A stretch of DNA of 64,000 nt from Leptonemataceae bacterium (GCA_965227295.1 OZ245742.1:5760001-5824000), one strand, 5' to 3'. Counted from the first letter of the stretch, positions 25,814-62,283 are shown. Made by a program: numbers and translations. The notes: generated by a model not told the origin, from the letters alone.

Positions 25814-25894
25814 TGCACCAAAGGACTAATCTATTTTGGTGCATCCCGAAATCCCGCCCCTGGCTTAATCTCAATCCAGCACTATTTTGGTGCG
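25814..25894. promoter_or_regulatory. NtrC-type enhancer boxes
   Basis: AGCACTATTTTGGTGCG (25878-25894, GCAC-N7-GTGC) plus half sites TGCACCAAA (25814) and CTATTTTGGTGCA (25831-25843). Confidence 0.55.
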
Positions 25895-25991
25895 CAATTT
25901 GTGCGCCTTCCCCCCGGCGGACAGAGCAGCCATCGCCTGGCCCTCCAAAAATCGGCTTGCGAATCCAGGGCTGCCATGCTTCGTACGTTGT

Positions 25992-26576
25992 GTGAAGCGC
26001 ATAGCAATCATGGCGGTGCTCCTGCCGGTTCTGGTTCTCTTCTGCGGGGGCCGCTGTTTTCTCTTCAGCACCACGCAGAGCTTCAGCAGCCAGTTCGACG
26101 ATGCGAGCGTCAGCACCCGGATTCGTGCCCTTCTGATCCAGGATCCCGATGTCAATCCGCTGAGCATCACGGTGGCCACGGACGAGGGTGAGGTCTTTCT
26201 CCTCGGGCGGGTCAGCAGCAAAGAGGAACGCCTGAAGGCTGAGCGCCACGCGCGCAGCATCGACGGCGTGTGGTCGGTGATGAACCATCTCCGGGTGGGC
26301 GTAAAGACCGAGAGCACCACCTACGCGGACATCCAACTGCGCCAGAAGATCGAAGCACGGCTGCTCCGGGATCAGGACATCCTGGCGCTGAACCTGCGGG
26401 TCTTTACGAACGAAGGTGAGGCGTACCTCCTCGGGCGGGTCCGCAACGATCAGGAACGACGGCAGGCCGTCGCCGTGGCCCGGGAGACGGAGGGCGTGCG
26501 GGAAGTCTTTAATTACATCAAGGCCGGTCTGGTGAAGGCCGAGGCGGAGACCGTCCGAGAACAGACCGCGGAATAG
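25992..26576 (+). CDS. Dual BON-domain (OsmY/DolP-like) exported protein
   Basis: Signal-like N-terminus; two BON repeats (DDASVSTRIRALL...GEVFLLGRV...GVWSV.N.L). Confidence 0.88.
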   Translation: MKRIAIMAVLLPVLVLFCGGRCFLFSTTQSFSSQFDDASVSTRIRALLIQDPDVNPLSITVATDEGEVFLLGRVSSKEERLKAERHARSIDGVWSVMNHLRVGVKTESTTYADIQLRQKIEARLLRDQDILALNLRVFTNEGEAYLLGRVRNDQERRQAVAVARETEGVREVFNYIKAGLVKAEAETVREQTAE

Positions 26577-44424: not shown

Positions 44425-44690
44425 CCTCGCGGGCGTGGCTGCCGCCTCGAATCGCTGAGTAAGATCCATTCATCGTAAGCTAGCGATCGTAACGCGAGCA
44501 TGCATCCGCATCATCAATTCCAGGGAGGCGATGTAATCTTGTAAAATACAATCACGTGAGTGATGCAGACTTTGCACAACCGGCCGAAAATCCTTCCTGC
44601 GTGCATGAATCACATTGAAAAGCGTTTGCGATTCGAGGACAAGCACGGTGCATCCTGATGCAAGAGGACCCAGGGTCCAGGGACGCAATC

Positions 44691-47600
44691 ATGAAAGCCG
44701 ACATTTCCCGCAGCACTTTTCGCGCCGATAAACACTACTCCACCGTACGTTACCAACAAGGCCGCGTACAGGTCGACGCGGACTTCAACGAACAACAGGA
44801 CATCGCTCTTCATCACGAGCGCACGGCAAACGCCGACGTGATCGGGGCCGATGGGGCCCCGTTTCAAACGGACGGCTTCGAGATCCAACCGAACGCCGCC
44901 AACGACAACCTCACCATCTCCGCGGGACGCCTGTATGTAAACGGCATCCTCTGCGAAAACGAAACATCATTTACATTCACCGAACAACCCGATCTTCCCG
45001 GGGCCGCCCTGCCCGCCGACGACGGTGACTATCTTGCGTATCTCGAGGTTCGGGAACGTGACCTCGGCGCCCTGGAAGAACCGGAGCTGCGCGAAACCGC
45101 GCTGGAAGGCCTGGATACGACCCGGCGCACGCAAACATTATGGCAGGTGCAGTTACTGCCGGTTGCGGCGGGTCCGAAGACTTCGCTCACCGCGCCCGTG
45201 GCCTGGCAGGATTTAATCTCGGCCCTGCCGGGACGCCTGCTCGCCGGAACCGACGCCGATACGTTCAGCGGCGACCCGTGCAGCCTGGAAGATCGCGGCG
45301 GTTACACCTCGCCGGAAAACCGACTGTATCGCGTGGAGGTTCATACGCCGGGAGCGCCGGGTACCGCCACGTTCAAGTGGTCGCGGCATAACGCCACCAT
45401 CGCCACGGAGTGGCTGGCGCAGGACGGCAACTCCCTGGTCGTGCAATCCATCGGTCGGGACAGGGAGTTGCGTTTTCGCGCCGGGGACTGGATTGAGATC
45501 AGTGACGAACGGCTGGAACTCGAGGACCGCCCCGGGACCCTGGCGCGCATTGTCACCGTGGCCGGCGACAGCATCGTCATCGACCCGCTGACGCTCGAGC
45601 ACTACGATCCGTCGTTCACCGAACTGGACATTGATCAGTTTCAGGAAGGCAGCCGCCGCATTCGACTCTGGAACGACGCCGATCCGACGAATATTATACC
45701 GGCGGACGGCGCCGAGGTTATAGTGGAAGCCGGCATTCGCGTGCAGTTCGAACCCGACGGCAACCCGGAAGGACGTACGTATCGCACCGGCGACTACTGG
45801 CTGATTCCCGCGCGCGCTCGCAATCGTAACATTGAATGGCATGATGCTCCGGCGCTGCAACCGCCGCACGGCAATCAACGCCACTTCGTGCGCCTGGCGT
45901 TCTTGAATCACACGGGCGGGACCTGGACGCATCTTGCAGACTGCCGTAACATCTTCCCAACGTTACTTAACGAAGACTTCACGATCCAGGGCGGCAACGC
46001 CCAGGCGGCCTTCCCGAACGAAGAGCCGGCCTTCCCGTTACGCGCGCTCGTGTCCCGCGGGTCCGTCCCCGTTCCCGATCGCACGGTCCGCTTTCGCTTA
46101 TTGAGCGGGGACGGCGGCCTGGCCGTGAGTTCCGGCGGAGTCACTGCGGTCAGCCAGTTAATTCCCACGAATGCGGAAGGCGTTGCCGCGGCCTACTTTC
46201 GCGTGGGCCCGGATCGCACTCAGGCGCATCATGAAATTCTCGCCGAGCTGTTGGACGCAAACGACCAGGTCATTCAGTTGCGGCGTTTTCACGTGGATTC
46301 GGCCATCGCCGAAGCGATTTCGTACGAAACAACGGTAGCCGCGGCCGACGGCGCCACAATCAACCCGGCCACGGTGCAGGAAGCCCTCGACGAAAGTTTT
46401 CGCGCGAAGGTCAATCGCTCCGGCGATACGATCACCGGCGATTTGCGCATCGAGGGCAGCCTCACGGTCGAAGGCGACATGCTCGCCCGGGACACGGAGC
46501 ACATCAAGGGCGACGTCGAACTCGGCGACGAGGCCACGGACACCGTGAAGGTCTTCGGCAGAATGATCGGCCCGGACGGTTCGCCGCTGAACATCGCCGA
46601 CGACGCCAACGTCTCCGGCGAACTCTACGTCGAAGAACGCGTGGGTGTCGGCGTACCGCCGGCCGCGGGTAGCCTGCTCAACGTAAACGATTTTCTTAAC
46701 GTTCACGAAAACGGACTTACGGCTCTCGGCGACGTCGAACCCGCGGCGCGGTTGCACATTCGGGGCGTGGACGACGCGGACCCGCTGCGCGTGGACGCGG
46801 CCGTGGCCGGCCCCGGCGGGCGTGTGCATTACATTCCGTTTACCGTAAGTTACGCCGGCGCGACGCCGCTCATCAACTACCAGCTCCCGCTGACGTTCGA
46901 TTCGGCGAGCCTCATCGGCGCCGGCCGCCTGCGCGCGGACCTGGGCGATCTGCGCTTCGTGATCCACGACCCCGCGGCGCCGGATACGTATCTGGTGCAC
47001 TGGGTCGAAAGCGGCATCAATACAGCACAAACCCTCGTCTGGGTTAAGTTAACGGCCCTGGCGCCCGCCGCTTCGATCGAAGTGCGCATGTACTACGGCA
47101 ATCCGAACGCGGTGAGCATTTTCCCGCGGAGCGCGGTCTTCGAGCTGGAGATCCCCGGCCTGGTCTCGGCCTGGTCCCTCGACGAAAATACCGGCACGTC
47201 TCTCAGCGACGCGAGCGGCAACGGCAACATCGGCACGCTCGAAGGCAACACTACGTGGGTGAGCGGCAAGATCGGAACGGCGGTGAACTTCGACGGCGTG
47301 GACGCCGCGGCCCAGGTTCCGCATGCGGCGTCGCTGGACATTACGAAGGACATTACGCTCGCGCTCTGGTTCCAGGCCACGGCACCGGGCACGGGACTCG
47401 CCGGACTCATCGGCAAACATCACACGGCCGGGGCGCGTTCGTTTGCGCTGTTCTTGAATTACGACACGGGCCTGCTGGAGTTCTCGCTGAGCGCCGCGGA
47501 CGACACGACGCAAACGCTCTCCGGCACAACGACGATCAGCTACGGGCAGTGGTACCACGTTGCGGCGGTCTACCGCCGGGCGACCGGCACCATGCAGATA

Positions 47601-49319
47601 TTTTTGAACGGCGCGCAGGATGCGAGTCTGGCCGCCGGATCATTCGACCTGGCTTCGACGAACCTGCCGCTAACATTCGGTGCGACGTTATTTGCGCCGG
47701 ACGGCTCGGCGCTGCGGTACTTCTTTCAGGGCACCATCGACGAACCGCGCGTTTACGCCGCGGCGTTGTCCGCTGCGGAAGCGGCCGTCCTGGCCTCGGA
47801 ACGCGGCTACGCCACCCCGGCGGTACCGGGCATTGATCTTGTGCGTAAGTTCGCCGCAGATGAACCTACGGCCGCGGCGGGAACGGAGATCACCGATCTG
47901 CCGGCTACCGAAGAAACGCTGCTGTTGATTCAGAGCGGCACGGGGAACGTGGGCATCGGCCTCGATAATCCGTCGGAGCGTTTGTCCGTGGGCGGCATCA
48001 TTGAAACGACGACGGGCGGCGTACGTTTTCCCGACGGCACGTTGCAAACGACGGCGGCCGGCGGCGGCAGTTTGTGGGTCGATGAGAATGATACAGTCAC
48101 CGCCGAGGCGAGCGTGCGTGCCCGGGGCGTGCTCGAGGGTCATGAGTTGCAAATCAACGACGTCGCGCTGCGGTTGGAATGGTCGCCGGATCATTCGGCG
48201 CAGCTCACCGCTTCGGACGGCCAGAGCGGTGACCGTTTCGGTCGAACCGTTGCGATCCGGGGAGACTATGCTCTGATCGGCGCGGCCTGGGTCGGTCCCA
48301 TCAATGAAGGCGGCGCGTATTTTTTCGAACGTGAAAGCGGCGTGTGGACCGAGAAGCTGAAGATCACCGGCGATGCCGACGACTACCTGGGCGACTCGGT
48401 GGTCATCTGCGGCAATACCGCGGTGATCGGCGTGCGTGAGGACGATGCGCTCGGGAACGACTCCGGTGCCGTGCGCGTCTACGAACGGCAGAGCGGCGTG
48501 TGGACGCAAACGCAGGAGCTCACGGCATCGGACGGCATTGCGGAAGTCGAGTTCGGTTACGCCCTGGCTTTGTTTGAAGACACGCTCTTTGTAGCGCACC
48601 GGGGCGACACCGGTCTCGATCCAGGCGGCGCGGTGTACGTCTTCGAACGCGTGGGCGGTGTCTGGTCCGAGACGCAGAAGTTCACGGCCGCGGACACTCA
48701 GACCTACGATTTCTTCGGGGCGGCCGGCATGGCGATCTATGAGAACACGGCTGTGATTGGCGCCTTCGGCCACGACAGCCCGGGCAATGATGCGGGCGCG
48801 GCTTATGTCTTTGAACGAGTCAGCGGGACGTGGGTGCAGCAACAGAAGCTACAGCCGGCCGGTATAGAAGCCGGGGACTACTTCGGCAGCAGCATCGCCA
48901 TGCACGGAAACGCCATTGTCGTCGGAGCTTTTTTCGACGATGATGCCGGAAGCAGCGCCGGAGCCGTCTATGTCTTCGAACGCGAAAACGGTGTCTGGGT
49001 AGAGAAACAAAAACTCACCGCGGATGACGGAGCCGCAGGCGACAACTTCGGCAACGCCGTAAGCATCAGCGGGACAACGATCGTAGTGGGGGCTCGCAGC
49101 AGCGGCGGCGGTGATTTTACCGGGGCAGCCTACATCTTTCAGCGGGAACGCGGGCAGTGGATTCAAAAACATAAGCTGCGTCCGGCGGGATTGATAAGCA
49201 ACGACTCTTTCGGTTATTCCGTCGATATCAGCAGTGATCGAATCATTGTCGGGGCCTCGGGCGGCAATGGCTCCACTTACATCTACGACGCCAATCTCCG
49301 ACTCGTCCAGGTTTGTTGA
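44691..49319 (+). CDS. DUF6519-domain tail-fibre-like protein with DUF2341, LamG and 7 FG-GAP repeats
   Basis: MKADISR.TF...HY..V..QQGRVQ.DAD.NE, GRLYVNGILCEN, ENRLYRVEVH, FKWSR.NA, GDYWLIPAR, DCR..F; fibre motifs TVQEALDE, GDTITGDL, GNVGIG..P...L.V.G, FPDGTLQTTA. Confidence 0.85.
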   Translation: MKADISRSTFRADKHYSTVRYQQGRVQVDADFNEQQDIALHHERTANADVIGADGAPFQTDGFEIQPNAANDNLTISAGRLYVNGILCENETSFTFTEQPDLPGAALPADDGDYLAYLEVRERDLGALEEPELRETALEGLDTTRRTQTLWQVQLLPVAAGPKTSLTAPVAWQDLISALPGRLLAGTDADTFSGDPCSLEDRGGYTSPENRLYRVEVHTPGAPGTATFKWSRHNATIATEWLAQDGNSLVVQSIGRDRELRFRAGDWIEISDERLELEDRPGTLARIVTVAGDSIVIDPLTLEHYDPSFTELDIDQFQEGSRRIRLWNDADPTNIIPADGAEVIVEAGIRVQFEPDGNPEGRTYRTGDYWLIPARARNRNIEWHDAPALQPPHGNQRHFVRLAFLNHTGGTWTHLADCRNIFPTLLNEDFTIQGGNAQAAFPNEEPAFPLRALVSRGSVPVPDRTVRFRLLSGDGGLAVSSGGVTAVSQLIPTNAEGVAAAYFRVGPDRTQAHHEILAELLDANDQVIQLRRFHVDSAIAEAISYETTVAAADGATINPATVQEALDESFRAKVNRSGDTITGDLRIEGSLTVEGDMLARDTEHIKGDVELGDEATDTVKVFGRMIGPDGSPLNIADDANVSGELYVEERVGVGVPPAAGSLLNVNDFLNVHENGLTALGDVEPAARLHIRGVDDADPLRVDAAVAGPGGRVHYIPFTVSYAGATPLINYQLPLTFDSASLIGAGRLRADLGDLRFVIHDPAAPDTYLVHWVESGINTAQTLVWVKLTALAPAASIEVRMYYGNPNAVSIFPRSAVFELEIPGLVSAWSLDENTGTSLSDASGNGNIGTLEGNTTWVSGKIGTAVNFDGVDAAAQVPHAASLDITKDITLALWFQATAPGTGLAGLIGKHHTAGARSFALFLNYDTGLLEFSLSAADDTTQTLSGTTTISYGQWYHVAAVYRRATGTMQIFLNGAQDASLAAGSFDLASTNLPLTFGATLFAPDGSALRYFFQGTIDEPRVYAAALSAAEAAVLASERGYATPAVPGIDLVRKFAADEPTAAAGTEITDLPATEETLLLIQSGTGNVGIGLDNPSERLSVGGIIETTTGGVRFPDGTLQTTAAGGGSLWVDENDTVTAEASVRARGVLEGHELQINDVALRLEWSPDHSAQLTASDGQSGDRFGRTVAIRGDYALIGAAWVGPINEGGAYFFERESGVWTEKLKITGDADDYLGDSVVICGNTAVIGVREDDALGNDSGAVRVYERQSGVWTQTQELTASDGIAEVEFGYALALFEDTLFVAHRGDTGLDPGGAVYVFERVGGVWSETQKFTAADTQTYDFFGAAGMAIYENTAVIGAFGHDSPGNDAGAAYVFERVSGTWVQQQKLQPAGIEAGDYFGSSIAMHGNAIVVGAFFDDDAGSSAGAVYVFERENGVWVEKQKLTADDGAAGDNFGNAVSISGTTIVVGARSSGGGDFTGAAYIFQRERGQWIQKHKLRPAGLISNDSFGYSVDISSDRIIVGASGGNGSTYIYDANLRLVQVC

Positions 49320-49379
49320 AGGCCGTAAAATCATGTTGACCACCCCGCCGTGCGGCGCACGCTGCGGGGTCTCAACACT

Positions 49380-50648
49380 ATGGCCATCGACAAAAACAAA
49401 ACTCGCGAACTCTTAGACGGCGTCGACGAACTCTTTGACAGTATGATCGGCGGACTTTCGAAAGACGTCGCCGGCTTTCTGAAACGCACGGTGATGGGGC
49501 CGGCGCTCGACGAGATCCGCAAGTTAATAGAAGAAAGCCGGCCGCCGGTGCTGTTCCTGGCCGGGCGTTCCGGTCACGGCAAGTCGTCGTTGATCAACGC
49601 CCTGGCCGGTCGGGAGATCGCGGACGTCGGCGACATCAAACCGACGACGCCGGAGTCCACGCCGTATCTCATTCACTTTGAAGAACAGTACTCGGCCTGG
49701 CAGGTCGTCGACTCGCGCGGCATCTTCGAAACGACGCGGCCGGACGGCGCGCCGGCCGACGACGCCGTGTCCGTGTTGAAGGCGGACCTGCGCAAACATC
49801 GGCCGGACGTGTTGATGCACGTCATCAGCGCGCCGGAGTTGCGGAACCTGGCGCCGGACCTCGAAGTCTTGCAAAAGATTCGCGACGAGCTGCGGCACGA
49901 GGACGGCCTGGACCTGCCGGTGATCGTCGTCCTGAACAAAGTCGACACGCTGGGCAATCCGCGCGAATGGCCGCCGGAGTCGAACGCGAAAAAGGCCGCG
50001 CTGATTCAAGAGGCCGTGCAGTACATGAGCGGCGACGTGTTGCGTTTACCGGACGCGCAGAACATCGATCGTAACTTTGCCATTCGCGGTGTGTCCTCCG
50101 GCGACGCGAATCGGCCCGCGGTCATTCCGGTGTGTTCGTTGCCGGGCGACGGCTGGAACATCGAAAGCCTCGCCGACTTCATCGGCACGCGATTGCCGGA
50201 CGTCGCGCTCCTGGATTTTTACCAGGCGTTGCGGCGCAAGGAACAACTGCGGCGCATCTCTTCGTCGCTGATCAAACGGTTCTCGGTCATCGCCTCGGGC
50301 ATCGGCGCGTCACCGGCTCCGCTGTCGGACTTTATTGTTCTCACGCCCTTGCAAATTTTGATGGTCGCCATGATTGGCGGGCTTTCGTGTCGCCCCGTCT
50401 CCCGCGAGACGGCCTACGAGTATCTCTCGGCGATCGGTGTGAACCTGGCCGCGGCCGGCGGCGTGCGCTACGTCACGCGGCAGTTGTTGAAGTTCATTCC
50501 GTTTGGCGGCTGGGCGGCGGCCGGTTCGATTGCCGGGGCAAGCACCTACGGTCTCGGCAAGGCGGCGGAGACGTACTTCTTTGCCGGCGAGTTGAAGAAG
50601 CCGGAGGAGTTTCAAGCGGGGTGGAAGGTGGTGAAGGATGGGGCTTAG
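49380..50648 (+). CDS. Era/MnmE-type P-loop GTPase with C-terminal DUF697-like hydrophobic domain
   Basis: G1 GRSGHGKS, G2 PTT, G3 DSRG, G4 NKVD; C-terminal SPAPLSDF..L...Q..M...IG and KFIP..G. Confidence 0.85.
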   Translation: MAIDKNKTRELLDGVDELFDSMIGGLSKDVAGFLKRTVMGPALDEIRKLIEESRPPVLFLAGRSGHGKSSLINALAGREIADVGDIKPTTPESTPYLIHFEEQYSAWQVVDSRGIFETTRPDGAPADDAVSVLKADLRKHRPDVLMHVISAPELRNLAPDLEVLQKIRDELRHEDGLDLPVIVVLNKVDTLGNPREWPPESNAKKAALIQEAVQYMSGDVLRLPDAQNIDRNFAIRGVSSGDANRPAVIPVCSLPGDGWNIESLADFIGTRLPDVALLDFYQALRRKEQLRRISSSLIKRFSVIASGIGASPAPLSDFIVLTPLQILMVAMIGGLSCRPVSRETAYEYLSAIGVNLAAAGGVRYVTRQLLKFIPFGGWAAAGSIAGASTYGLGKAAETYFFAGELKKPEEFQAGWKVVKDGA

Positions 50649-50750
50649 GTTACTCGGATTAGATTTTAGTTGCGGACATTTTGCGACGTGGATCGTGGAC
50701 GAATCTTCAAGCATCAGAAAGACAAACGAGTGATCAAGTAAGATTGTTTT

Positions 50751-50880
50751 GGGCGTGCCCCTCCGCGCTACGCGCTCCGGGTCGCGCTTTCCAGGGCTCC
50801 GCGCTTCGCGCTTCGGTCCTCCGCCTTCGGCTCCGGACTCGCGGCTTCGCCGCGACCCTTCCAATCGCTCACGCGAAGAA
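50751..50880 (+). repeat. Long hairpin-rich dispersed repeat, copy 1
   Basis: GGGCGTGCCC...GGGTCGCGCTTTCCAGGGCTCC...ACCCTTCCAATCGCTCACGCGAAGAA; aligns with 54693-54813 and the reverse complements of 54501-54618 and 60044-60165. Confidence 0.9.
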
Positions 50881-51071
50881 CTCGTCGTTCGATCATGTGG
50901 CTCAGGTGATCATTCCGGACCTTTTTACCCTCACGCCTCCCCCTCGGCGTCCTGTGGCGAATCACAGGCGGATATTCATTTGTCCCGCCGGTTTCTGGAA
51001 TTTCGCCGGGTGGTCCGTTTTCCGCGCGGCCGTGGTCGATTTTCGGGGTGGCCCGCCCCGATATTTGGATC

Positions 51072-51269
51072 GTGAGCGAAAGCAACGATTCCCCGAAATC
51101 ACGCACGCGGTCCCGCTTTAAGGACGCCGGCAGCCCCCATGTCAACAACGACCCGAAAGTGGTGAACCTGGCGTACTATCGGATTAAGAAGTCCCTGCAA
51201 CAGGAAGGCTTCGATCTGGTGACCGATGCGGATGGGAAGTTGACGTTGGTGTTAAGAGTGACGAAGTAG
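51072..51269 (+). CDS. Small hypothetical protein (65 aa)
   Basis: GTG start; KVVNLAYYRIKKSLQQEGFDL..DGKLTLVLR; coding-like codon usage. Confidence 0.6.
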   Translation: MSESNDSPKSRTRSRFKDAGSPHVNNDPKVVNLAYYRIKKSLQQEGFDLVTDADGKLTLVLRVTK

Positions 51270-51272
51270 AAG

Positions 51273-51680
51273 TTAGAGTCTTGCGCGCACTTGCCGCACG
51301 AAATCTTCAAGGTCGCTGAGGCGATTCTCGGCTACGTCCCTGAGTATACTGATGTCCACGTCCGTGTAGCCGTGCACAAGGACGTTTCGAAATCCAATCA
51401 CCTTGCGCAAGTTCTGCGATGTCTCCTGCTTGATCCAATCGTTTCGCGCCAGCTTGTCAAACAGCTCCGCGTTCGTGCGCGGCTCCCCTAATTTCTCATC
51501 CGAAACGATATGCGATCCTATGTCCTGAACTGCCTGGATCGCGATCTGGAGCGTGTGCTCGACGAAACGCCGCTCCTTCAGATCCGTCGAAATCTTCTCG
51601 GGTCGCGCCAGTTCTCGCAAATCGCGGAGGCATGCCTCAATGAAAGCCAGTTTCTTTCGGATCAGATCTTCGTCTGTCAT
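51273..51680 (-). CDS. hepT: HEPN (DUF86) RNase toxin, HepT-type
   Basis: RNVLVHGY matches RX4HXY; ATGA overlap with the MNT gene. Confidence 0.9.
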   Translation of the reverse strand: MTDEDLIRKKLAFIEACLRDLRELARPEKISTDLKERRFVEHTLQIAIQAVQDIGSHIVSDEKLGEPRTNAELFDKLARNDWIKQETSQNLRKVIGFRNVLVHGYTDVDISILRDVAENRLSDLEDFVRQVRARL

Positions 51681-52072
51681 CGAGCGGCCTGCCGATATTC
51701 ATCCAGGATCGGCTTGAGATCCCAGTATTTGTTCCGGGCCTGCACCTCGAATGCAATTCGCCGCGATGGGTCCTGTTCCGTAATGAGAATCCCATCACGT
51801 AAGATACGATGCACGAGGTCCGCCGGAGCGTCGTTCATTACGATCAATTGAGCCGGACGTTCCAGAATTTCGGAAAGATCGGCCTCTAAATCGAACGGAC
51901 GAGCATCAAGAGTTTGAGGCGGCGTTTGTCTATAAAGCAAGCCGACATCTACGTCACTTTTCGCCGTTTGCGTACCGCGAGCGACACTGCCGAACAGGTA
52001 CACTGCCGCCAATCCCGGAACGTCCCGAAAAAATTCTCGCAGGCGATCCTGTATCTCGTCAGCCGGCATCAC
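51677..52072 (-). CDS. mntA: Minimal nucleotidyltransferase antitoxin, MntA-type
   Basis: YLFGSVARGTQTAKSDVD matches GSX10DXD. Confidence 0.9.
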   Translation of the reverse strand: MMPADEIQDRLREFFRDVPGLAAVYLFGSVARGTQTAKSDVDVGLLYRQTPPQTLDARPFDLEADLSEILERPAQLIVMNDAPADLVHRILRDGILITEQDPSRRIAFEVQARNKYWDLKPILDEYRQAAR

Positions 52073-52082
52073 TCAGGCCATC

Positions 52083-54440
<2,358 letters not shown>

Positions 54441-54500
54441 GGGAACAGCGTCGACAGCACGCCCCGGTGATGCAAGCGAGAATGTGAAGTCCAATCCGGG

Positions 54501-54618
54501 TTCTTCGCGCCAGGGATGTGGAAGGTCGCGCGTTAGCGCGAGTCCGGAGCCGAAGGCGGAGGACCGAAGCTAAGCGGAGCCTGTAGCAGCCCGGTCGCCG
54601 CGTAGCGGCGAGGCGCCC
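54501..54618 (-). repeat. Long hairpin-rich dispersed repeat, copy 2 (diverged, inverted)
   Basis: TTCTTCGCGCCAGGGATGTGGAAGG...AGTCCGGAGCCGAAGGCGGAGGACCGAAGC...GGCGCCC. Confidence 0.85.
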
Positions 54619-54692
54619 AAAAAAGTTCCAATTTCAACAGGATTTCCAGGTAAAAATCGATATGCTAACTTATAATGAAGCAATATTTGCAA

Positions 54693-54813
54693 GGGCGTTC
54701 CCCTCCGTGCTTCGCACTCCGGGTCGCGCTTTCCAGGGCTCCGCCTTCGGCTTCGGTCCCCGCTTCGCGGTGACTCGCGCTTCGCGCGACCCTTCCAATC
54801 GCTAACGCAAGAA
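54693..54813 (+). repeat. Long hairpin-rich dispersed repeat, copy 3
   Basis: GGGCGTTCCC...GGGTCGCGCTTTCCAGGGCTCC...ACCCTTCCAATCGCTAACGCAAGAA. Confidence 0.9.
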
Positions 54814-54820
54814 TTGATAG

Positions 54821-54904
54821 TTCGCGGCCGTATTCCCATCCCCGGGCGGCCTTTTTAGTCGGCCCCTGGGCCTCCGGCCCACCCCTCCAATCGCTAACGC
54901 AAGA
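54821..54904 (+). repeat. Short form of the repeat
   Basis: Starts TTCGCG; hairpin GGGCC-TCC-GGCCC; ends CCCTCCAATCGCTAACGCAAGA. Confidence 0.7.
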
Positions 54905-54916
54905 GCCGTGAGCCGA

Positions 54917-55288
54917 CTACGTCACAATAAAATACCAGGCATACAACACCACGCACACCAGATCAAACAAACCCACCGGCAAAAGCGGGCGGCCGAAGGG
55001 ATCGCCGGCGCGACTGAAGACCAGCAACGCGAACACGGCCTTCGATGCGATGGCCGCCGTCATCACCGCCTCGCGCACGGCCGGCGCGGTGCCGGCATAC
55101 ACCAACAGCACCCCCGTGATGCCGACCAGCCAGGCCCAGTGGCGGATCATCAACAGCGCGTTGCGGTCTTCGATGTCCGTACCGGTGAGCGTGCGCAGCA
55201 GGAACCGCGGCGCGATGCTGAGAATGGCGGCCCCGGCAGTGAGCGTGCCGGTGACGTAGAGGATCATTTCAATGTTGTCTGCGATCAT
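54917..55288 (-). CDS. Small membrane protein
   Basis: 123 aa with four hydrophobic segments; directly downstream of hrpB. Confidence 0.75.
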   Translation of the reverse strand: MIADNIEMILYVTGTLTAGAAILSIAPRFLLRTLTGTDIEDRNALLMIRHWAWLVGITGVLLVYAGTAPAVREAVMTAAIASKAVFALLVFSRAGDPFGRPLLPVGLFDLVCVVLYAWYFIVT

Positions 55289-55306
55289 GTGTGTTTTTCC
55301 GTTAAG

Positions 55307-57910
55307 TTACTTTTTTTGATTCTTAGCGTTCGCCCCGGCGCGTTTCTTCGTAAAACGCGTCGCCGTGGCGCTGAGGGGGTCGTCCGGCCAGGGATGTTTC
55401 GGATAACGACCCATCAGCTCTTTTTTCACTTCGGCATACGTGTTCTTCCAGAAGTTGCCGAGGTCTCGCGTCACCTGGATCGGCCGGCGCGCCGGGGACA
55501 GCAGGTGCACCGTAAGCGGCACACGCCCGAAGGCAACGCGCGGTGTCTCCGTAATGCCGAACAGCTCCTGCAACTTTGCGGCCAGCACACACTCGTCGTT
55601 TGCATACTCAAGTGCAACGCGGGTACCCGCCGGAGTTTCGAAGCGTTCCGGCGCGCCGTCGTCGATCGCACGCAGTTGTTCATATGTAAAGCGCGATTGT
55701 AAGATCATCGCAAAATCCAGCTTCGCAAAATCGGCGCGCTTCGTCACGCCGCTCAGGTGCGGCAGCAGCCATTCGTCGGGACGCGCGGCGAGATACACAT
55801 CGGAGACATCCGGCAGGTCGAGATCGTCGGCGTGCTTGCGCAAGAATTCGGCGCGGGCCTGGAACCGCCGGGCGTCGCCGGAGGCGTCCCATTCGTTCCA
55901 GGGCGGCACGACATCGCCGCCGCTCGTTTGCATCATTCCGCGCACGCCTTCGAGCAGCGCCGCTTCGATCTCCGCGGGCTGGAGCGCCGCGTCTCCGGCA
56001 TCGCGTCGCGCCAGACGAATCGCGCCGAGCCGACGTTCATGCGCGCGTACCAGGCGATCATCCTCCCAGGCAACGACGTCGCCTTCGCTGATGCGCGCGG
56101 CGAAGCGCGTTTCGATTTCCCCGGCACTCACTTCGGCGTGCAGGATGATGCGCGCGTCCGCGCCGCTTCCGTCCAGGTGCGCGGCCACGATCCACTCCGG
56201 CGTTTCGCGCTGCGACTCCGGAACGTTCAGCCGCGCGCCGCGTCCGTTCGCGAGCAGGTAACGATCGCGACTGCCGGACCGCCGCCGCGCAATGCGATCC
56301 GGATACGCGAGCGCCAGCAGAGCACCCGCGTTCGCATCGCCGGCATTTTCCGGCGACGATTCGGAGGAACTCCGGCACATCTTACGCAACTGCTGCGCGA
56401 CTCGACGCACGTTCGCGAGAGCCCCCGCGTCCGTATTCGCACGCGCAGTGCCGTGCAACGCGTCCAGGCGCAGAGTAAGATCGGACGGCGGCAGTTCCGG
56501 CCCGCTGCGTCGCAACAGGTCGCGCTCCGAAAGCAGCGCGGCGATGTCGCAGGCAAGATCCGACGGCGCGGCAACCAACATGGCGGCCAGGCGCGGATGC
56601 AGCGGCATCCGTTCCATCTTACGACCGCTCTCCGTAACGACGTACGCCCCATCCAACGCGCCGAGTTCGACTAACAGATCGCGAGCGTGAGTTAGTGCGG
56701 ACCGCGGCGGCGCGTCGAGAAAAGGCAGCGCGTCCGGTTCGCTGACACCCCAGGCGGCCAGCTCCAGGACCAGGCCGGCCAGGTCACTCTCCAGGATTTC
56801 CGGCGCGTCGTGGGCCGCGAGGCGATCGTGATCATGCTGCGACCAGAGACGATAGGCGCGACCGGGGCCCAGGCGCGCACACCGGCCGGCCCGCTGTTCG
56901 GCCGACGCGCGGGATATCGGCACGGTCACGAGTTGACTGAGGCCGCTGCCGGGATCGTAGCGCGGCGTACGGCGGAGCCCGCTGTCGATGACGATGCGAA
57001 TGCCTTCTATAGTAAGCGACGTCTCCGCGATGGGCGTGGCGAGTACGATCTTACGTCGTCCGCGCGGGTCCGGGCGAATCGCCGCATCCTGCTCGCGCAG
57101 GTCCAGATTACCGTAGAGCGGGGCGACGGCCATATCGTGCGCATTGGTAAGAGTTCCTACAAGTTCGTCGTGAAGGCGGCGGATTTCCGGGGCCCCGGGT
57201 AGAAAAACGAGCACGTCGCCGTCGTGTTCGGCCAGCGCGCGTTCGATGACCGGCCGCACCGCTGCCGCGACCGTCCCGGGGCGACGATCGTTGGCATGGA
57301 GCAATGTCGGAGTTCCTACAAAGTCTACCGTAAGGGGATGCAGCTTCCCGGCACTGCTGATGACCGGCGCGGATGATGAGCCGCCGCCGATCAGCCCGGC
57401 CGCGCGTTCGGCGACGCCTTCCAGCGTGGCGGACATGATCAGCAACCGCAAATCCTCGCGGAGCGCACCGCGACTCTCCAGACACAACGCCAGCGCCAGG
57501 TCGGCGTGAATGCTGCGTTCGTGAAACTCGTCGAAGATCACCAGACCCACGCCGCGCAGTTCCGGATCGTTCTGGATGCGCCGTGTGAGGATGCCCTCGG
57601 TCACGACTTCGATGCGTGTGCGTGCGCTTACGTTGCTCTCAAAACGCACGCGATGGCCGATCGTTTCGCCGGGGCGTTCATTGAGCGACTGCGCCATACG
57701 CGCGGCCACCCCGCGCGCGGCGAGGCGTCGCGGCTCGAGCATGAGGATGGTTTGATCGCCGAGCCAGGGTTCATCGAGCAGGGCGATGGGAACGATCGTA
57801 GACTTACCGGCCCCCGGCGGCGCTTCGAGTACGGCGGCGCCGCGGTTCGCGAGCGCGTGGCGGAGTTCGGGGAGGACCTCGGTGACGGGCAGTTCGGGTA
57901 ACGCGCGCAC
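55307..57910 (-). CDS. hrpB: ATP-dependent RNA helicase HrpB
   Basis: APPGAGKST, LEPRRLAAR, DEFHERS, MSAT, AETSLTI, QRAGR; C-terminal LLSPARRPIQVTRDL..FW...Y..V.KE..GRYPKHPWP. Confidence 0.95.
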   Translation of the reverse strand: MRALPELPVTEVLPELRHALANRGAAVLEAPPGAGKSTIVPIALLDEPWLGDQTILMLEPRRLAARGVAARMAQSLNERPGETIGHRVRFESNVSARTRIEVVTEGILTRRIQNDPELRGVGLVIFDEFHERSIHADLALALCLESRGALREDLRLLIMSATLEGVAERAAGLIGGGSSSAPVISSAGKLHPLTVDFVGTPTLLHANDRRPGTVAAAVRPVIERALAEHDGDVLVFLPGAPEIRRLHDELVGTLTNAHDMAVAPLYGNLDLREQDAAIRPDPRGRRKIVLATPIAETSLTIEGIRIVIDSGLRRTPRYDPGSGLSQLVTVPISRASAEQRAGRCARLGPGRAYRLWSQHDHDRLAAHDAPEILESDLAGLVLELAAWGVSEPDALPFLDAPPRSALTHARDLLVELGALDGAYVVTESGRKMERMPLHPRLAAMLVAAPSDLACDIAALLSERDLLRRSGPELPPSDLTLRLDALHGTARANTDAGALANVRRVAQQLRKMCRSSSESSPENAGDANAGALLALAYPDRIARRRSGSRDRYLLANGRGARLNVPESQRETPEWIVAAHLDGSGADARIILHAEVSAGEIETRFAARISEGDVVAWEDDRLVRAHERRLGAIRLARRDAGDAALQPAEIEAALLEGVRGMMQTSGGDVVPPWNEWDASGDARRFQARAEFLRKHADDLDLPDVSDVYLAARPDEWLLPHLSGVTKRADFAKLDFAMILQSRFTYEQLRAIDDGAPERFETPAGTRVALEYANDECVLAAKLQELFGITETPRVAFGRVPLTVHLLSPARRPIQVTRDLGNFWKNTYAEVKKELMGRYPKHPWPDDPLSATATRFTKKRAGANAKNQKK

Positions 57911-58046
57911 GGTGACACTGTAGCGATGGGGCGTAGTTGGTAAACTGTTTTGACCACCGAGGCACCGAGGACGCTGAGAAGATTTTTTTACAGGAGGATG
58001 AGAGGTAGAGAATTGTTGGATGGAGTGGTGTTGCGGATTTCGGGTT

Positions 58047-58134
58047 TTCGCGTGAGGGATTTTGTGGCCCGGCCGCGTCGGGAGCGGCCGGGGCCGCGTG
58101 AGTTGGTTCCCCTCCAGGCACCTAACGCGAAGAA
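58047..58134. repeat. Short form of the repeat with inverted termini
   Basis: TTCGCGTGAGG...CCTAACGCGAAGAA around a GGCCCGGCCGC/GCGGCCGGGGCC stem. Confidence 0.7.
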
Positions 58135-58161
58135 GCGGGGTTAGGTTTATGTGAGAGGGAC

Positions 58162-58632
58162 TTAGGGATCGCTGACGGGGTTTGTTAGACGAATGTGCAC
58201 GTCGTGAGCGATTTCTGGAATCCACTGGGGCGGACAGTGCTTGAGCGCGTGTTTGTAAAGATCCAGGAAGTGTGTGCGCACGGTGTCTGTGTTCTCGCCG
58301 AGATCCATGGATTGAACGGCGTATGCATGACGGGATAACATGCGATCACAGATTTCCTCGTTACCGGCCAGGAGCTCCCGTCGAACTGCGAGATACGCGG
58401 CGCCGTCGTGCTCTTCCGAAAAATCCAGCCCGCCCGGCTTTCGCGCATGGGCGGCCCACATCCGGTCTTGATACATTTCCCGCATGGTCTCGGAAACCCC
58501 GGCGGGGAACTCATGATGGATCAGTTCCTCCCAGTCCGGCTCAACACCGATCTCCGGTTTTTCCGAAACCAGAACGGAGGCGCCCACCGGCTCCGTTCGC
58601 TCACACCGATGCATCGCCCCGCCATGGAACCG
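58162..58632 (-). pseudogene. Probable frameshifted C-terminal part of the pentapeptide-repeat protein (or a separate ORF)
   Basis: A -1 shift at 58632 joins LSHAVLNGA to RFHGGAMHRC, which continues the pentapeptide register. Confidence 0.5.
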
Positions 58633-59987
58633 GCCCCGTTTAGAACGGCATGGCTTAGATCGACTCCATCCAGTTGAATGTACCACAGATTCGCGCCGGT
58701 TAGCGTGGCGGACATCAGATCCGCGCCGATCAGCGTGGCTGACATCAGATTCGCGCCGGGCAGCGTGGCGGACCTCAGATCCGCGCCGGTCAGCGTGGCG
58801 GACATCAGATTCGCGCCGGACAGCGTGGCGGACATCAGATACGCGCCGGTCAGCGTGGCTCTCCTCAGATCCGCGCCGGTCAGCGTGGCGAACCTCAGAT
58901 CCGCGCCGGTCAGCGTGGCGAACCTCAGATATGCGCCGGTCAACGTGGCTCTCCTCAGATCCGCGCCGATCAGCCTGGCGAACTCCAGATACGCGCCGGT
59001 CAGCCTGGCGAACTCCAGATACGCGCCGGTCAGCCTGGCGAACTCCAGATTTGCGCCGGTCAGCCTGGCTGATATCAGATTCGCGCCGGTCAGCGTGGCG
59101 GACCTCAGATCCGCGCCGGTCAAATCGGCCTCGCTCAGGTCCACACCTTCCAGTTTCGCAACACTGTCACTTTGCCACAGCACCGCATACTCCAACTGCG
59201 CCTCGCGCAGGTCCTGGATGCGCCATCCATCCTCCCGCACAATCCGCTCCATCGCCCGAAACGGCGCGCTCTTCGGCACCTCCGTAAGTTCCTTTCCTCG
59301 AAACTTACGCAGCATATGATAGTCCCCGTGCCGGAGCGATGTCGTCTCGCTCAGCACCGCGAGATTCACATCGTTCGCCTCTTTCCACAATCGATAGTGC
59401 CGATCATACACCGCCCGATCCTTCAAGATCACCGCAAAGAAATCCCGCGCCAATCGGGCAAATACCGGCCGGTATTCTTTCAGTTCCTCCGGAATCAAGT
59501 CCGGATCTTCCCGCAGATAATCGCGCAACTGAAACAGCGCCGTTGTTACCTGCCCCTCGCGATCACTCACCGCCCATTCCTGGAGCTTGTAAAAATTCTC
59601 GCGGATGTTTTTGTACTTATCGTTCTTCAACTCCTCAACGCGATTGCGATCCCGAATAAACCAGGCATACCACACAATCGGCGTGGCGCTGACGGCGAGC
59701 AGGAACGTCCAGAAGCCGCCAGAGATCGGCCGGTCGCCGCTGCCTTCAAGGGAATTAACAACCGCAAACACTATCCCCGCGAGGATTAAGGAAATGATCA
59801 GCAGGATGATCCAGATCCACAGGCTGTGGCGCGCATCGTACAGAAACTTCTGGAACGACTCCTTGCGAATCACAAACTTCCAGAGCAGCCAACCGGCCCC
59901 GCTGAGAACGAGGGTTCCAGACAAGGTCACGAGGAACGGCAACTCGATCAAAACCGGCAACACACTCTCAGAAAACAAACGCGGCAT
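58521..59987 (-). CDS. Membrane-anchored pentapeptide-repeat protein
   Basis: Three N-terminal TM segments; long A(D/N/Y)LxxA(T/R)LTG array. Confidence 0.9.
   Translation of the reverse strand: MPRLFSESVLPVLIELPFLVTLSGTLVLSGAGWLLWKFVIRKESFQKFLYDARHSLWIWIILLIISLILAGIVFAVVNSLEGSGDRPISGGFWTFLLAVSATPIVWYAWFIRDRNRVEELKNDKYKNIRENFYKLQEWAVSDREGQVTTALFQLRDYLREDPDLIPEELKEYRPVFARLARDFFAVILKDRAVYDRHYRLWKEANDVNLAVLSETTSLRHGDYHMLRKFRGKELTEVPKSAPFRAMERIVREDGWRIQDLREAQLEYAVLWQSDSVAKLEGVDLSEADLTGADLRSATLTGANLISARLTGANLEFARLTGAYLEFARLTGAYLEFARLIGADLRRATLTGAYLRFATLTGADLRFATLTGADLRRATLTGAYLMSATLSGANLMSATLTGADLRSATLPGANLMSATLIGADLMSATLTGANLWYIQLDGVDLSHAVLNGAGSMAGRCIGVSERSRWAPPFWFRKNRRSVLSRTGRN
58686..59135. repeat. 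15 x 30-bp coding tandem repeat
   Basis: Unit consensus CAGATCCGCGCCGGTCAGCGTGGCGGACCT with exact 30-nt period. Confidence 0.95.
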
Positions 59988-60043
59988 CGTATCATACGAT
60001 GAGCCACCCCATCACCATAAGTCAACACATTCCCGAACTACCA

Positions 60044-60165
60044 TTCTTCGCGTGAGGGATTGGAAGGGTGGCGCGCAGCGCCAGTCCGGAGCGCGAAGCG
60101 CGGAGGACCGCAGCGAAGCGGAGCCCTGGAAAGCCCGACCCCGGCCGCAGGCCGGGGGCACGCCC
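60044..60165 (-). repeat. Long hairpin-rich dispersed repeat, copy 4 (inverted)
   Basis: TTCTTCGCGTGAGGGATTGGAAGGGT...GGAGCCCTGGAAAGCCCGACCC...GGGCACGCCC. Confidence 0.9.
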
Positions 60166-60219
60166 AAAAGAAACTTGCCTTATTCTTCTCACGGCGAACG
60201 CTACGATCCAGGAATCTTC

Positions 60220-61188
60220 ATGAAAGCCATCGTCGTCGAAGAACCGGGGCCGCCGGAAAACTTGCTCTACAAAGACGTACTCGATCCCGTCGCCGAAGAC
60301 GGTTGGCTGACAATTCGCATTCGCGCCTTCGGTCTGAACCGCGCCGAGTTGTTCACGCGCCAGGGCGACTCGGGGCCGGCCGTCCAGTTCCCGCGCATCA
60401 TCGGCATCGAATGTGTGGGCGAAGTGATCGCCGATCCGTCCGGAACTTACGCGCCCGGCCGGAAAGTGGCCACGCTCATGGGCGGCCTCGGCCGTGCCTT
60501 CGACGGCAGCTACGCCGAACAAACGCGCGTGCCGCTTGCTAATGTCGTACCGATCGATACTAAGCTGAGCTGGGCCGAGTTCGGCGCCGTGCCCGAAATG
60601 TTTCAGACGGCGAACGGTTCGCTCAAGTACGCGCTGCGCGTACAGCCCGGCAAAACGCTCCTGATCCGCGGCGGCACATCGTCCGTGGGACTCGCGGCCC
60701 TGGCCCTGGCAAAGTCCCTGGGGCTCACCGTGCTCGCGACCACCCGTCAGGCGGAACGCCGGCGATTCCTGAAAGATCAGGGCGCCGACCACGTCTTAGT
60801 TGACAGCGGCAAGATTCTAAGCGCCGTACATTACCTGTATCCCGGCGGCGTCGATTACGTACTGGACCTGGTCGGCACCCGGACGTTGAACGAATCCCTG
60901 GCCATGCTCGCGGACGGTGGCATCGTTTGCATGACCGGCATCCTGGCCGGCGAGTGGGAGCTGAATCAGTGGAATCCCATGGCGCACATCGGGGCCGGTC
61001 GCTACCTGACTGCCTACTCCGGCGACGGCATTTCCCGTGAAGATCTCCAGGACATCGTCGATCGCGTGGAAAGCGGTTCGATTCGGCTGAACCTGGATCG
61101 CACGTTCGCGTTCGGCGAACTCGTCGAGGCGCATCGTTACATGGAAGACAATCGCGCGACAGGCAAGCTGGTGGTGCTGCTGGATTAG
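60220..61188 (+). CDS. MDR-family (quinone oxidoreductase-like) dehydrogenase
   Basis: MKAIV..EPG.PE.L, AFGLNRAE, GIECVGEV, DGSYAE, IRGGTSSVG, AHRYME.NRATGKLVV. Confidence 0.9.
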   Translation: MKAIVVEEPGPPENLLYKDVLDPVAEDGWLTIRIRAFGLNRAELFTRQGDSGPAVQFPRIIGIECVGEVIADPSGTYAPGRKVATLMGGLGRAFDGSYAEQTRVPLANVVPIDTKLSWAEFGAVPEMFQTANGSLKYALRVQPGKTLLIRGGTSSVGLAALALAKSLGLTVLATTRQAERRRFLKDQGADHVLVDSGKILSAVHYLYPGGVDYVLDLVGTRTLNESLAMLADGGIVCMTGILAGEWELNQWNPMAHIGAGRYLTAYSGDGISREDLQDIVDRVESGSIRLNLDRTFAFGELVEAHRYMEDNRATGKLVVLLD

Positions 61189-61245
61189 CATGATTTTTCT
61201 GCGGCCGCGGTTGACGTTGGATGTCGACCTGCGCTTCCTGTATCC

Positions 61246-62283
61246 ATGGAATATCGCAAACTCGGCACCACCGATCTCGACGTGAGTGTGATCTGCCTGG
61301 GAACCATGACCTGGGGCCAGCAAAACACCGAAGCCGAAGCCCACGAACAAATGGACTACGCCCTGGATCAGGGGGTGAACTTCTTCGACGCGGCCGAGTT
61401 GTATCCGGTGCCGCCCCTCGCGGAGACCCAGGGCCGTACCGAGGAGTACATCGGCACCTGGTTTAAGGCCCGCGGCAATCGTGACCGGGTGATTCTCGCC
61501 ACGAAAGTCACCGGCCCCGGCGAGTTCGTGAAGCACATCCGCGGCGGACCACGTCTGGACCGCCAGGGCATTCGGGACGCTGTCGAAGGCAACCTCAAGC
61601 GCCTGCAAACGGACTACATCGATCTCTATCAGGTCCACTGGCCCGAGCGCGTAACTAACTTTTTCGGAAAGTTAGGCTACACCCACGTGCCGGACAAAGA
61701 CGGCGTAAACATCGCCGAAACCATCGGTGCCCTCGACGAACTAGTCAAGGAAGGCAAGGTCCGGCACATCGGCATCTCGAACGAGACGCCCTGGGGGACC
61801 ATGCAGTATCTACGTTACGCCGCCGCCGAGGGCAAGGCGCGCATCGTCAGCATTCAGAATCCGTACAATCTGCTGAACCGTACGTTCGAGATCGGCCTGG
61901 CCGAAACGGCGATCCGCGAGAAGGTCGGTCTGCTTGCGTACTCGCCCCTGGCCTTCGGCGCACTCACCGGCAAATATCTGAACGGGCAAAAACCCGAAGG
62001 CGCGCGGCTTACACTCTGGAAACGCTTCAGCCGTTACACCAACGCCCCGGGCGTGGCCGCCACCGAAAAGTACGTGGCACTCGCAAAAGAACACGGTCTC
62101 GACCCCGCACAGATGGCCCTGGCCTACGTGAACGGCCGGCAGTTTCTTACGGCGAACATCATCGGCGCGACGTCTATGGAGCAATTGAAGACGAACATAG
62201 ATTCTATTGATGTAAAGTTAAGCGACGACGTTCTGAAAGGCATTGAGGCGATTCATGCGGAGTTTCAGAATCCGTGTCCGTAA
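61246..62283 (+). CDS. tas: NADP(H)-dependent aldo/keto reductase, Tas-like
   Basis: LGTMTWGQQNTE, DAAELYPVPP, LQTDYIDLYQVHWPER, SNETPWG, IQNPYNLLNR. Confidence 0.92.
   Translation: MEYRKLGTTDLDVSVICLGTMTWGQQNTEAEAHEQMDYALDQGVNFFDAAELYPVPPLAETQGRTEEYIGTWFKARGNRDRVILATKVTGPGEFVKHIRGGPRLDRQGIRDAVEGNLKRLQTDYIDLYQVHWPERVTNFFGKLGYTHVPDKDGVNIAETIGALDELVKEGKVRHIGISNETPWGTMQYLRYAAAEGKARIVSIQNPYNLLNRTFEIGLAETAIREKVGLLAYSPLAFGALTGKYLNGQKPEGARLTLWKRFSRYTNAPGVAATEKYVALAKEHGLDPAQMALAYVNGRQFLTANIIGATSMEQLKTNIDSIDVKLSDDVLKGIEAIHAEFQNPCP

Follow-up and report, generated by a model that had tools for sequence, protein, structure and literature searches.

The stretch of DNA analysed here (hereafter the window) comprises 64,000 nucleotides of the genome of a Leptonemataceae bacterium (GCA_965227295.1, OZ245742.1), positions 5,760,001–5,824,000 of a single contig of 5.94 Mb with 59.8% G+C, and carries between its genes a dispersed repeat built from small hairpins whose stems vary from copy to copy. 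A covariance model (R1), built from the family and run over the window and other genomes, gave exactly four full-length matches in the window (100–129 bits), with the next best match at 15.7 bits (E 0.09). These four matches confirm the positions at which an earlier note, made from the sequence of the window alone, had placed four copies of the repeat (Table 1); that inventory overlooked a 3′ fragment of a further copy, as well as the two long-range helices, P1 and P3, that hold the element together. Throughout, the element is described in the “+” orientation of the model, and the opposite strand, which is the one with G-N-A loops, is referred to as the GNA strand.

Table 1 Copies of the repeat and associated features in the window, with positions counted from its first nucleotide.
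Feature	Position	Strand	Model score	Remarks
Full copy 1	50742..50885	+ (model orientation)	100.2 bits, E 3.4e-20	GNA strand is the window's −
Full copy 2	54496..54627	−	118.4 bits	GNA strand is the window's +
AT-rich spacer	54628..54683			Separates the 5′ ends of the head-to-head copies 2 and 3
Full copy 3	54684..54819	+	105.0 bits	Right half of head-to-head pair; GNA strand is the window's −
3′ fragment of a further copy	~54860..54900	+		Repeat family D5; last hairpin and 3′ strands of both long-range helices
Full copy 4	60039..60174	−	129.3 bits	Top-scoring copy of the genome; GNA strand is the window's +

Copy 1 lies between convergent genes, 97 nt past the stop of the gene at 49350–50648, and copy 2, the left half of the head-to-head pair, lies upstream of the gene at 52083–54440 (−), ~55 nt from its start. 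Copy 4 occupies a divergent intergenic region, upstream of the gene at 58521–59963 (−) and ~75 nt from where that gene starts. The fragment beyond copy 3 comes after a short GGCCTTTTTAGTCGGCCCC-type motif, and the same motif follows copies elsewhere in the genome. Genome-wide, an nhmmer profile based on these four, iterated at a cut-off of E ≤ 1e-3, recovered 224 copies, 189 of them near full length (108–217 nt, median 127), so that the copies first noticed in the window are a small part of a much larger family.

Fold and strand asymmetry of the element

Structurally, the element folds into a closing helix, P1, that contains hairpin P2 and a long-range helix, P3, which in turn contains hairpins P4–P6. 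P1 is formed by GCG-Y-N paired with N-R-CGC, the two strands being ~100 nt apart, and its 5–6 bp vary among copies, while P3 is a second long-range helix with an internal loop that is pyrimidine-rich in the + orientation. The minimum-energy fold of the GNA strand of copy 4 recovers P1–P6, the covariation-supported helices. The earlier note had described constant linkers separated by small hairpins that change in sequence and length and keep their pairing, and both the profile and the alignment of the genome-wide copies agree with that description. Inter-copy identity is 94% in the linkers and core versus 51% in the variable columns, with 55 core columns conserved at 90% or more, and the hairpins are represented among 177 copies by 119 (P2), 97 (P5), 72 (P6) and 62 (P4) distinct segments; 248 of the 288 distinct P2, P5 and P6 segments are perfect Watson-Crick hairpins.

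Evolutionarily, the pairing was evaluated by covariation within and beyond the genome. Across 175 unique near-full copies, the 13 helix-forming column pairs with the highest mutual information are 93–100% Watson-Crick and present 2–4 pair types each; column pair 88:100, for example, is GC in 79, CG in 65 and TA in 29 cases, and column pair 13:116 is CG in 86, GC in 38, TA in 37 and AT in 7 (the others being 40:109, 36:113, 12:117, 67:83, 14:32, 89:99, 45:104, 87:101, 47:102, 64:86 and 65:85). RNAalifold applied to 64 copies returned 23 pairs, 18 of which show compensatory changes. In 30 homologues from other genomes, 93.3% of the alignment cells are paired, versus 72.0% when shuffled and at most 52.9% with slid partners, and both partners have changed in 21 of the 23 pairs (a level attained by 0 of 500 shuffles), figures that must be read with the caveat that this alignment was fitted to the model; one-sided changes number only 0–2 per pair, and two-sided changes are many. 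The fold, as defined by these covariation-supported helices, is real.

The variants of the stems are combined among copies in an unusually free manner. Over the 224 copies, base-pair variants of different helices occur at intermediate frequencies and near linkage equilibrium, with a between-helix mutual information of 0.01–0.1 bit of ~1 bit, even for two P3 pairs that are 4 nt apart, and nearly all combinations occur; despite this, the two sides of each base pair remain strictly coupled. Simple descent from subfamilies is no explanation for such a pattern, and possible causes include an old expansion of star-like shape in which compensatory changes arose independently, conversion over very short tracts, and re-templating of stems.

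The loops, in turn, distinguish the two strands. Hairpin calling in the four modules gave 681 hairpins from 177 copies. In the + orientation, 450 of them have a C-G-closed T(N1-2)C loop, which reads G(N1-2)A on the opposite strand, and just 2 have a G(N1-2)A loop; the remaining 229 include hairpins of ambiguous register in runs of alternating G and C, calls on outer stems, and genuine exceptions, for example the AAGA loop of 18 P5 hairpins. At least 162 of the 177 P6 loops are of the T...C type. The loop bias reported in the earlier note from four copies has thus survived a far larger alignment. Counted as motifs over the 224 copies, GCGNAGC occurs 584 times on the GNA strand versus 5 on the other, and GCGNNAGC 166 versus 8, with at least one mini-hairpin consensus on the GNA strand of 220 copies, and with A as the most frequent middle base of the consensus. 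GCGNAGC reaches a density of 21.4 per kb within the copies; outside them, it is 0.645 per kb per strand. Read on the GNA strand, the conserved core is a tandem run of three CGNAG units, and the recurrent TCC/TCC and TC/TC internal loops become GGA/GGA and GA/GA, that is, purine-purine appositions. The same asymmetry holds beyond this genome: 127 versus 2 motifs in 60 copies from other genomes, 7 versus 0 in two Hymenobacter plasmid copies, 6 versus 0 in two microviruses, and 5 versus 0 in two double-stranded DNA (dsDNA) phage contigs. Nearest-neighbour folding with DNA parameters assigns the greater predicted stability to the GNA strand in 121 of 125 unique copies (mean difference 2.85 kcal/mol); with RNA parameters, it does so in 105 of the 125.

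These loops correspond to a chemically characterised class of DNA hairpin of exceptional stability. According to the review PMC13037366, GCGNAGC and GCGNNAGC DNA mini-hairpins melt at 70–76 °C, are poorly bound by the single-stranded DNA-binding protein SSB, and are found where primase starts in phages G4, St-1 and alpha3, as well as in ssiA of RSF1010 and in the N4 promoters. The element matches the mini-hairpin DNAs d(GCGNAGC) and d(GCGNNAGC) of Hirao and colleagues in their exact consensus, 750 times (584 + 166) and on one strand, and the middle A commonest in the element is also that of the most stable variant. The difference is one of kind, a physico-chemical motif there versus a genetic element here, and a natural 125-nt scaffold of several such hairpins is not mentioned in the passages of PMC13037366 consulted.

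Arrangement in the chromosome and occurrence in other replicons

Within the chromosome, 214 of the 224 copies are intergenic, in 129 tandem, 51 convergent and 34 divergent intervals, according to our own crude gene caller, on which, as a caveat, all of the gene-context counts rest. Convergent intervals are somewhat enriched (51/214 copies versus 839/4934 intergenic regions). The orientation of the element does not track the direction of transcription: in tandem gene pairs, 77 copies point opposite to the genes and 52 the same way, and gene ends are turned towards the 3′ side of the element 128 times and towards its 5′ side 103 times. No shared gene partner was found among 22 open reading frames (ORFs) adjoining copies in this and other genomes, which encode unrelated functions (restriction-modification enzymes, RHS/Kelch, PDZ, MerR and UPF0047 proteins).

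Adjacent copies, defined as those less than 400 nt apart, are nearly always inverted (40 of 41 pairs; 24 head-to-head, 16 tail-to-tail and 1 tandem). The head-to-head spacers are AT-rich, measure 61–68 nt in 13 of the 24 pairs and are in several cases homologous to one another; tail-to-tail pairs lie 3–19 nt apart, save one at 75 nt. Some near-identical dispersed copies have larger flanks in common and were duplicated as composite units. One such composite repeat of ~400 nt is present in at least 4–5 places (e.g., chromosome positions 2537806–2538486, 3020704–3021409 and 5890953–5891632). From 5′ to 3′, a long hairpin of its own precedes the initial ~35 nt of an inverted element, after which come a 62–70-nt AT-rich spacer, a full element and, ~45 nt further on, a short GACTTTTTAGTCAGCCCC-type motif. 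Copy 3 of the window and the fragment at 54860 fit this pattern. In contigs from sequencing runs of DNA or unknown type, assemblies break inside the repeats.

Copies were also seen among genes of a distinctive kind. At chromosome positions 2278500–2290500, four copies in the same orientation, three of them identical in the model columns, are interspersed in a polymorphic-toxin-like cassette array of three ~500–600-aa proteins that have a common N-terminal region and a Hint-type module, differing C-termini, and small putative immunity genes between them. In a genome of a second Leptospirales family, partial copies occur at similar regular spacing beside an RHS-repeat gene.

Outside this genome, the covariance model matched 29 of 41 Leptospirales genomes, among them 13 of the 24 from the window's own family and 15 of the 16 from a second one with lower G+C and genomes of 4–4.7 Mb, where the element forms a GC-rich island and reaches at least 40 and at least 22 copies in two genomes. 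A BLAST search with one copy against the 40 relatives was insensitive (7 of 41 genomes, mostly partial matches), and the covariance model was used instead. Copy number differs sharply within the genus: two same-genus genomes yielded 2 model matches each among 80 scored candidates, versus 80 of 80 here. Their genes are ~70–78% identical to those of the window's genome and synteny is broken; around partial gene matches (query 49400–62200) no element was found at the corresponding loci of these two genomes, with synteny poor there. In a sample of the phylum, 26 of 151 genomes had matches, including 6 of 10 and 2 of 6 in two other families. An exact degenerate pattern searched against 185,579 species genomes found full copies in a Leptospirales metagenome-assembled genome (MAG) and in a MAG labelled Bdellovibrionales, and a 30-nt piece in a Rhodobacterales MAG. 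The Leptospirales match fits the order suggested in the earlier note. Searching the literature on Leptospira repeats, GCGAAGC hairpins and microvirus stem-loops, we found no published description of the family, which the supplement of PMC11602168 might catalogue.

Plasmid homologues, located by blastn and then by the covariance model, are all from Bacteroidota: two copies on Hymenobacter NZ_CP014303, one further Hymenobacter plasmid (NZ_CP040937), and weaker homologues on Pontibacter NZ_CP134698. One of the NZ_CP014303 copies (25889–25995) sits between a toprim-domain gene and a gene with a zincin-like metallopeptidase domain, a pair which we take to be reminiscent of the primase and ArdC-like genes of plasmid transfer or leading regions.

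Among viruses, blastn gave no match in the INPHARED phage collection, and two sequence patterns located six IMG/VR viral contigs, of which two are complete Microviridae genomes and two are dsDNA phage contigs. The Microviridae contigs (4604 and 4344 nt) encode the F capsid protein, a replication initiator and a pilot protein, and each contains one compact, intergenic copy of the element (113 and 100 nt, without P6) directly upstream of the pilot gene. In both genomes, the GNA strand coincides with the coding strand. Because microviruses package the mRNA-sense strand, the strand with the mini-hairpins is the one that exists as single-stranded DNA (ssDNA). The two microviruses are distant from each other, with Rep proteins 37% identical and differing gene orders.

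In the two dsDNA phage contigs, the element lies directly after the terminase stop codon. Nine related phages, found by a search with an alignment of the two terminase sequences, have this site filled in 2, occupied by a mini version in 1 and empty in others (e.g., contig L169), which shows gain or loss at a homologous site. The mini version (IMG/VR 3300031576_000296, positions 2848–2920), likewise directly after the terminase stop, is a shortened relative that keeps P1, P2 and the outer P3 strands, has an unrelated short stretch in place of the interior, and escaped the covariance model.

Candidate roles and rival explanations

Taken as a genetic element, the family belongs among structured non-autonomous repeats, and its best explanation, to which we assign a probability of roughly one half, is a structured ssDNA module that works like an ssi or sso signal, has spread horizontally and has multiplied in this chromosome. 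Under this explanation, it would be a small (~100–135 nt), non-coding, non-autonomous DNA element that conserves the fold of one DNA strand and acts while single-stranded, during replication, transfer or packaging; its mini-hairpins would exclude SSB and designate a site used by primase or RNA polymerase, as in the G4-type origin, ssiA and the plasmid sso. It would spread horizontally, and would have been amplified to the ~224 copies of this genome, most of which are probably passengers. Two observations favour such an ssi/sso-like module, namely the presence of the same mini-hairpin motifs at known priming sites and their location on the packaged strand in two microviruses. We infer in-cell folding as ssDNA, a role in priming or second-strand synthesis, and the mode of copying to new sites.

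The precedents for a module of this kind are the ssi/sso signals of the G4, St-1 and alpha3 origins, ssiA and ssiB of RSF1010, and the sso, the single-strand origin of rolling-circle plasmids, which is active as a folded single strand. They are non-coding, ~40–300 nt long and, in the known systems, active solely as a folded single strand and orientation-specific. According to PMC13037366, they present GCGNNAGC- or CCGAAGG-type mini-hairpins at the priming site. In the element, the GNA strand is the coding, hence packaged, strand in both of the carrier microviruses, a comparison that covers two genomes only. No sequence similarity to these signals is claimed. The known signals are also single-copy parts of replicons, in contrast to ~224 dispersed chromosomal copies without replication-strand bias, and the element is found in dsDNA phages in the opposite orientation.

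Several observations weigh against the ssi/sso-like reading, in addition to the caveats attached here to the gene-context counts, the cross-genome alignment and the wobble counts. In both dsDNA phage contigs, as on NZ_CP014303, it is the non-GNA strand that is the coding strand. Only two microviruses were present among the six viral contigs found with the two patterns, so that the element is not a general feature of microviruses and could be a passenger there too. In the chromosome, 108 of the 224 copies lie on the leading strand (as assigned from cumulative GC skew), and this lack of replication-strand bias argues against a strand-specific role in chromosome replication. No binding protein or mobilising enzyme was identified among the families searched. 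The outermost helix, P0 (a T-run with AGA), is lineage-specific and weakly supported, with 65.5% of cells paired across genomes and many U.G pairs on the non-GNA strand (61/192 cells, RNAalifold). Finally, the folding energy of copy 4 departs little from that of dinucleotide shuffles (z −1.55 for the GNA strand, −1.69 for the other), and folding energy by itself is weak evidence.

The most direct challenge to a DNA module is that the fold acts as RNA, with copies transcribed in neighbouring mRNAs or as small RNAs, an explanation that we regard as unlikely; the roles that it would bring with it, such as a REP/ERIC-like stabiliser of 3′ ends, an RNase barrier, a terminator or a regulator, seem to us equally improbable. 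The intergenic location of nearly all copies and the mild enrichment at convergent gene ends would suit such roles, as would the terminator-like start of the element at the terminase stop codon in the two dsDNA phages, and both strands fold strongly as RNA (~−60 kcal/mol on average), with U.G pairs in P0 and with the nested junctions, conserved junction nucleotides and variable peripheral hairpins that are typical of functional RNAs. The composition of the stems, however, favours DNA: 1982 of 2039 stem positions are Watson-Crick, with G.T at 3 on one strand and 11 on the other (0.15–0.5%, under a scoring by which stems may be cut short at terminal mismatches), versus 125 G.U among 1662 pairs (7.5%) in the ARAGORN-predicted tRNAs of the same genome, and one-sided changes are nearly absent while two-sided changes are abundant. 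The commonest P4 is a 2-bp stem with a triloop of the GCGAAGC type (89/177), which covaries with 3–4-bp versions, and conserved 2-bp stems with triloops are marginal in RNA. Since orientation relative to genes is inconsistent (77 versus 52; 128 versus 103), one RNA sequence cannot be the product at most loci. A simple scan revealed no promoter-like or terminator-like site at the four window copies, and Rfam offered no family, with 0 matches in the window at gathering thresholds and, at E ≤ 1 with 11 copies, only one chance-level match (mir-484, 23 bits); the two ssDNA phages, for their part, have one copy each on the packaged strand. From the near-absence of wobble pairs, the 2-bp triloop form of P4 and an orientation blind to transcription, we favour a strand-specific fold that acts at the level of DNA and not of RNA.

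A DNA-level element could nonetheless be mobilised in other ways, and the earlier note, which had proposed that the element is selected to fold as strand-specific ssDNA, likened it to REP/HUH-transposase and attC-type substrates. Of that proposal, a strand-asymmetric fold kept by selection or templating stands, the REP/HUH-transposase analogy fails, and the attC analogy has nothing to support it. The copies are indeed hairpin-rich and intergenic, and their inverted pairs recall BIMEs and REPINs; REP/BIME/REPIN families of Enterobacteria and Pseudomonas similarly comprise hundreds of intergenic, GC-rich palindromic copies, with inverted doublets, compensatory variation and a proposed action as ssDNA. 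Yet the Y1_Tnp domain (PF01797) of RAYT and IS200/IS605 TnpA has 0 matches in this single-contig genome, with control genomes positive, and among the 41 Leptospirales genomes it occurs only in two (G004 and G040) that lack the element, hence in 0 of 29 carriers. The TnpB zinc ribbon (PF07282) likewise has 0 matches here, as does the microvirus-type Rep domain (PF23343), the controls being positive for both; 0 matches to PF04986 (Y2_Tnp) and PF02305 (Phage_F) carry no weight, the controls also being negative. The absence of a lagging-strand bias argues further against IS608-like insertion into the lagging-strand template. The element is moreover 3–5 times the length of a REP and multi-branched (~125 nt, combining two long-range helices with four hairpins, versus a single hairpin of 20–40 nt), and its family crosses phyla and is present on phages and plasmids. 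A REP/REPIN-type substrate of a RAYT or IS200/IS605 Y1 HUH transposase is, on these grounds, largely refuted, and we hold it to be highly improbable. The likeness to attC sites is unsupported in that the copies are dispersed over the whole chromosome and conserved in sequence (in the core columns noted above), and do not stand in cassette arrays beside an integrase, for which no search was run. A selfish repeat resembling a miniature inverted-repeat transposable element (MITE), moved by an unidentified double-strand transposase or by recombination and bearing its hairpins as a functionless by-product of DNA mechanics, has more in its favour and is still improbable in our view, and we are equally doubtful of the origin that it would give the hairpins, in quasipalindrome correction by template switching or in gene conversion among copies. 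It would account for the very different copy numbers of congeners, the filled and empty sites among related phages, the inversion of 40 of 41 adjacent pairs and the joint duplication of larger composite units; perfect Watson-Crick palindromes are as expected from templated correction, and base-pair alleles near linkage equilibrium are what frequent conversion would give. According to PMC11602168, Leptospirales are especially MITE-rich (median 154 per genome), and MITEs are shared between hosts and viruses. The details fit less well: the terminal inverted repeat is limited to the 5–6 bp of P1, and target duplications of at least 5 nt were not detected, 5–10-mers common to both ends being no more frequent than with shuffled partners (for 6-mers, 17 of 166 copies versus 16.5). 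No candidate parent insertion sequence was found, the single IS110-type gene of the genome (PF01548) not being beside any copy. Template switching does not explain why the first and last loop positions are fixed while the stems vary freely, and the contrast of core and variable columns, with a core conserved among copies and also across phyla, calls for recognition by something. The nearest comparisons also include ERIC/IRU, Correia, RUP and other MITE-like structured repeats of bacteria. These are long simple hairpins or units bounded by terminal inverted repeats, some with TA duplications; they resemble the element in length (~100–150 bp), wide taxon range, very different copy numbers, stable folding and lack of a transposase of their own, and differ from it in that the element is branched, has GNA mini-hairpins on one strand only and hypervariable stems, and is without detectable duplications of 5 nt or more.

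Returning to the ssi/sso-like module, a bolder version of it may be considered, although we think it quite unlikely. The element might be a portable “second-strand origin”, a folded ssDNA module recognised by the host's primase or RNA polymerase and carried by microviruses and plasmids for conversion to duplex, which is now also a transposase-free, self-spreading chromosomal repeat copied via single-stranded intermediates by host replication functions. If so, it would represent a novel class of mobile DNA, one whose defining feature is a structure instead of an enzyme, and base pairs would assort near-independently because the stems are constantly re-templated. More broadly, small structured repeats such as REPs are poorly understood, with the enzyme and the active strand unknown for most families, and this family offers handles in its covariation-proven fold, a clear strand signal from a chemically characterised DNA motif, and a tested absence of RAYT. 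Its range links chromosomes of several phyla (including the order of Leptospira), plasmids, dsDNA phages and the packaged strand of ssDNA phages, and raises the testable question of whether natural DNA mini-hairpin scaffolds serve as priming or SSB-excluding signals beyond the classic coliphages. Practically, the covariance model could be a marker for horizontal DNA flow and phage–host links in spirochaetes and Bacteroidota.

Two further repeats of other kinds lie within coding sequences of the window. At 58573–59202, inside the long ORF 58521–59963 (−), is a tandem repeat with a 30-nt period and at least 14 units (family D1), presumably a 10-residue coding repeat, and at 48308–49028, within the 1553-aa ORF 44658–49319 (+), are five diverged repeats with a period of ~160 nt (family D2) that look like repeated protein domains.

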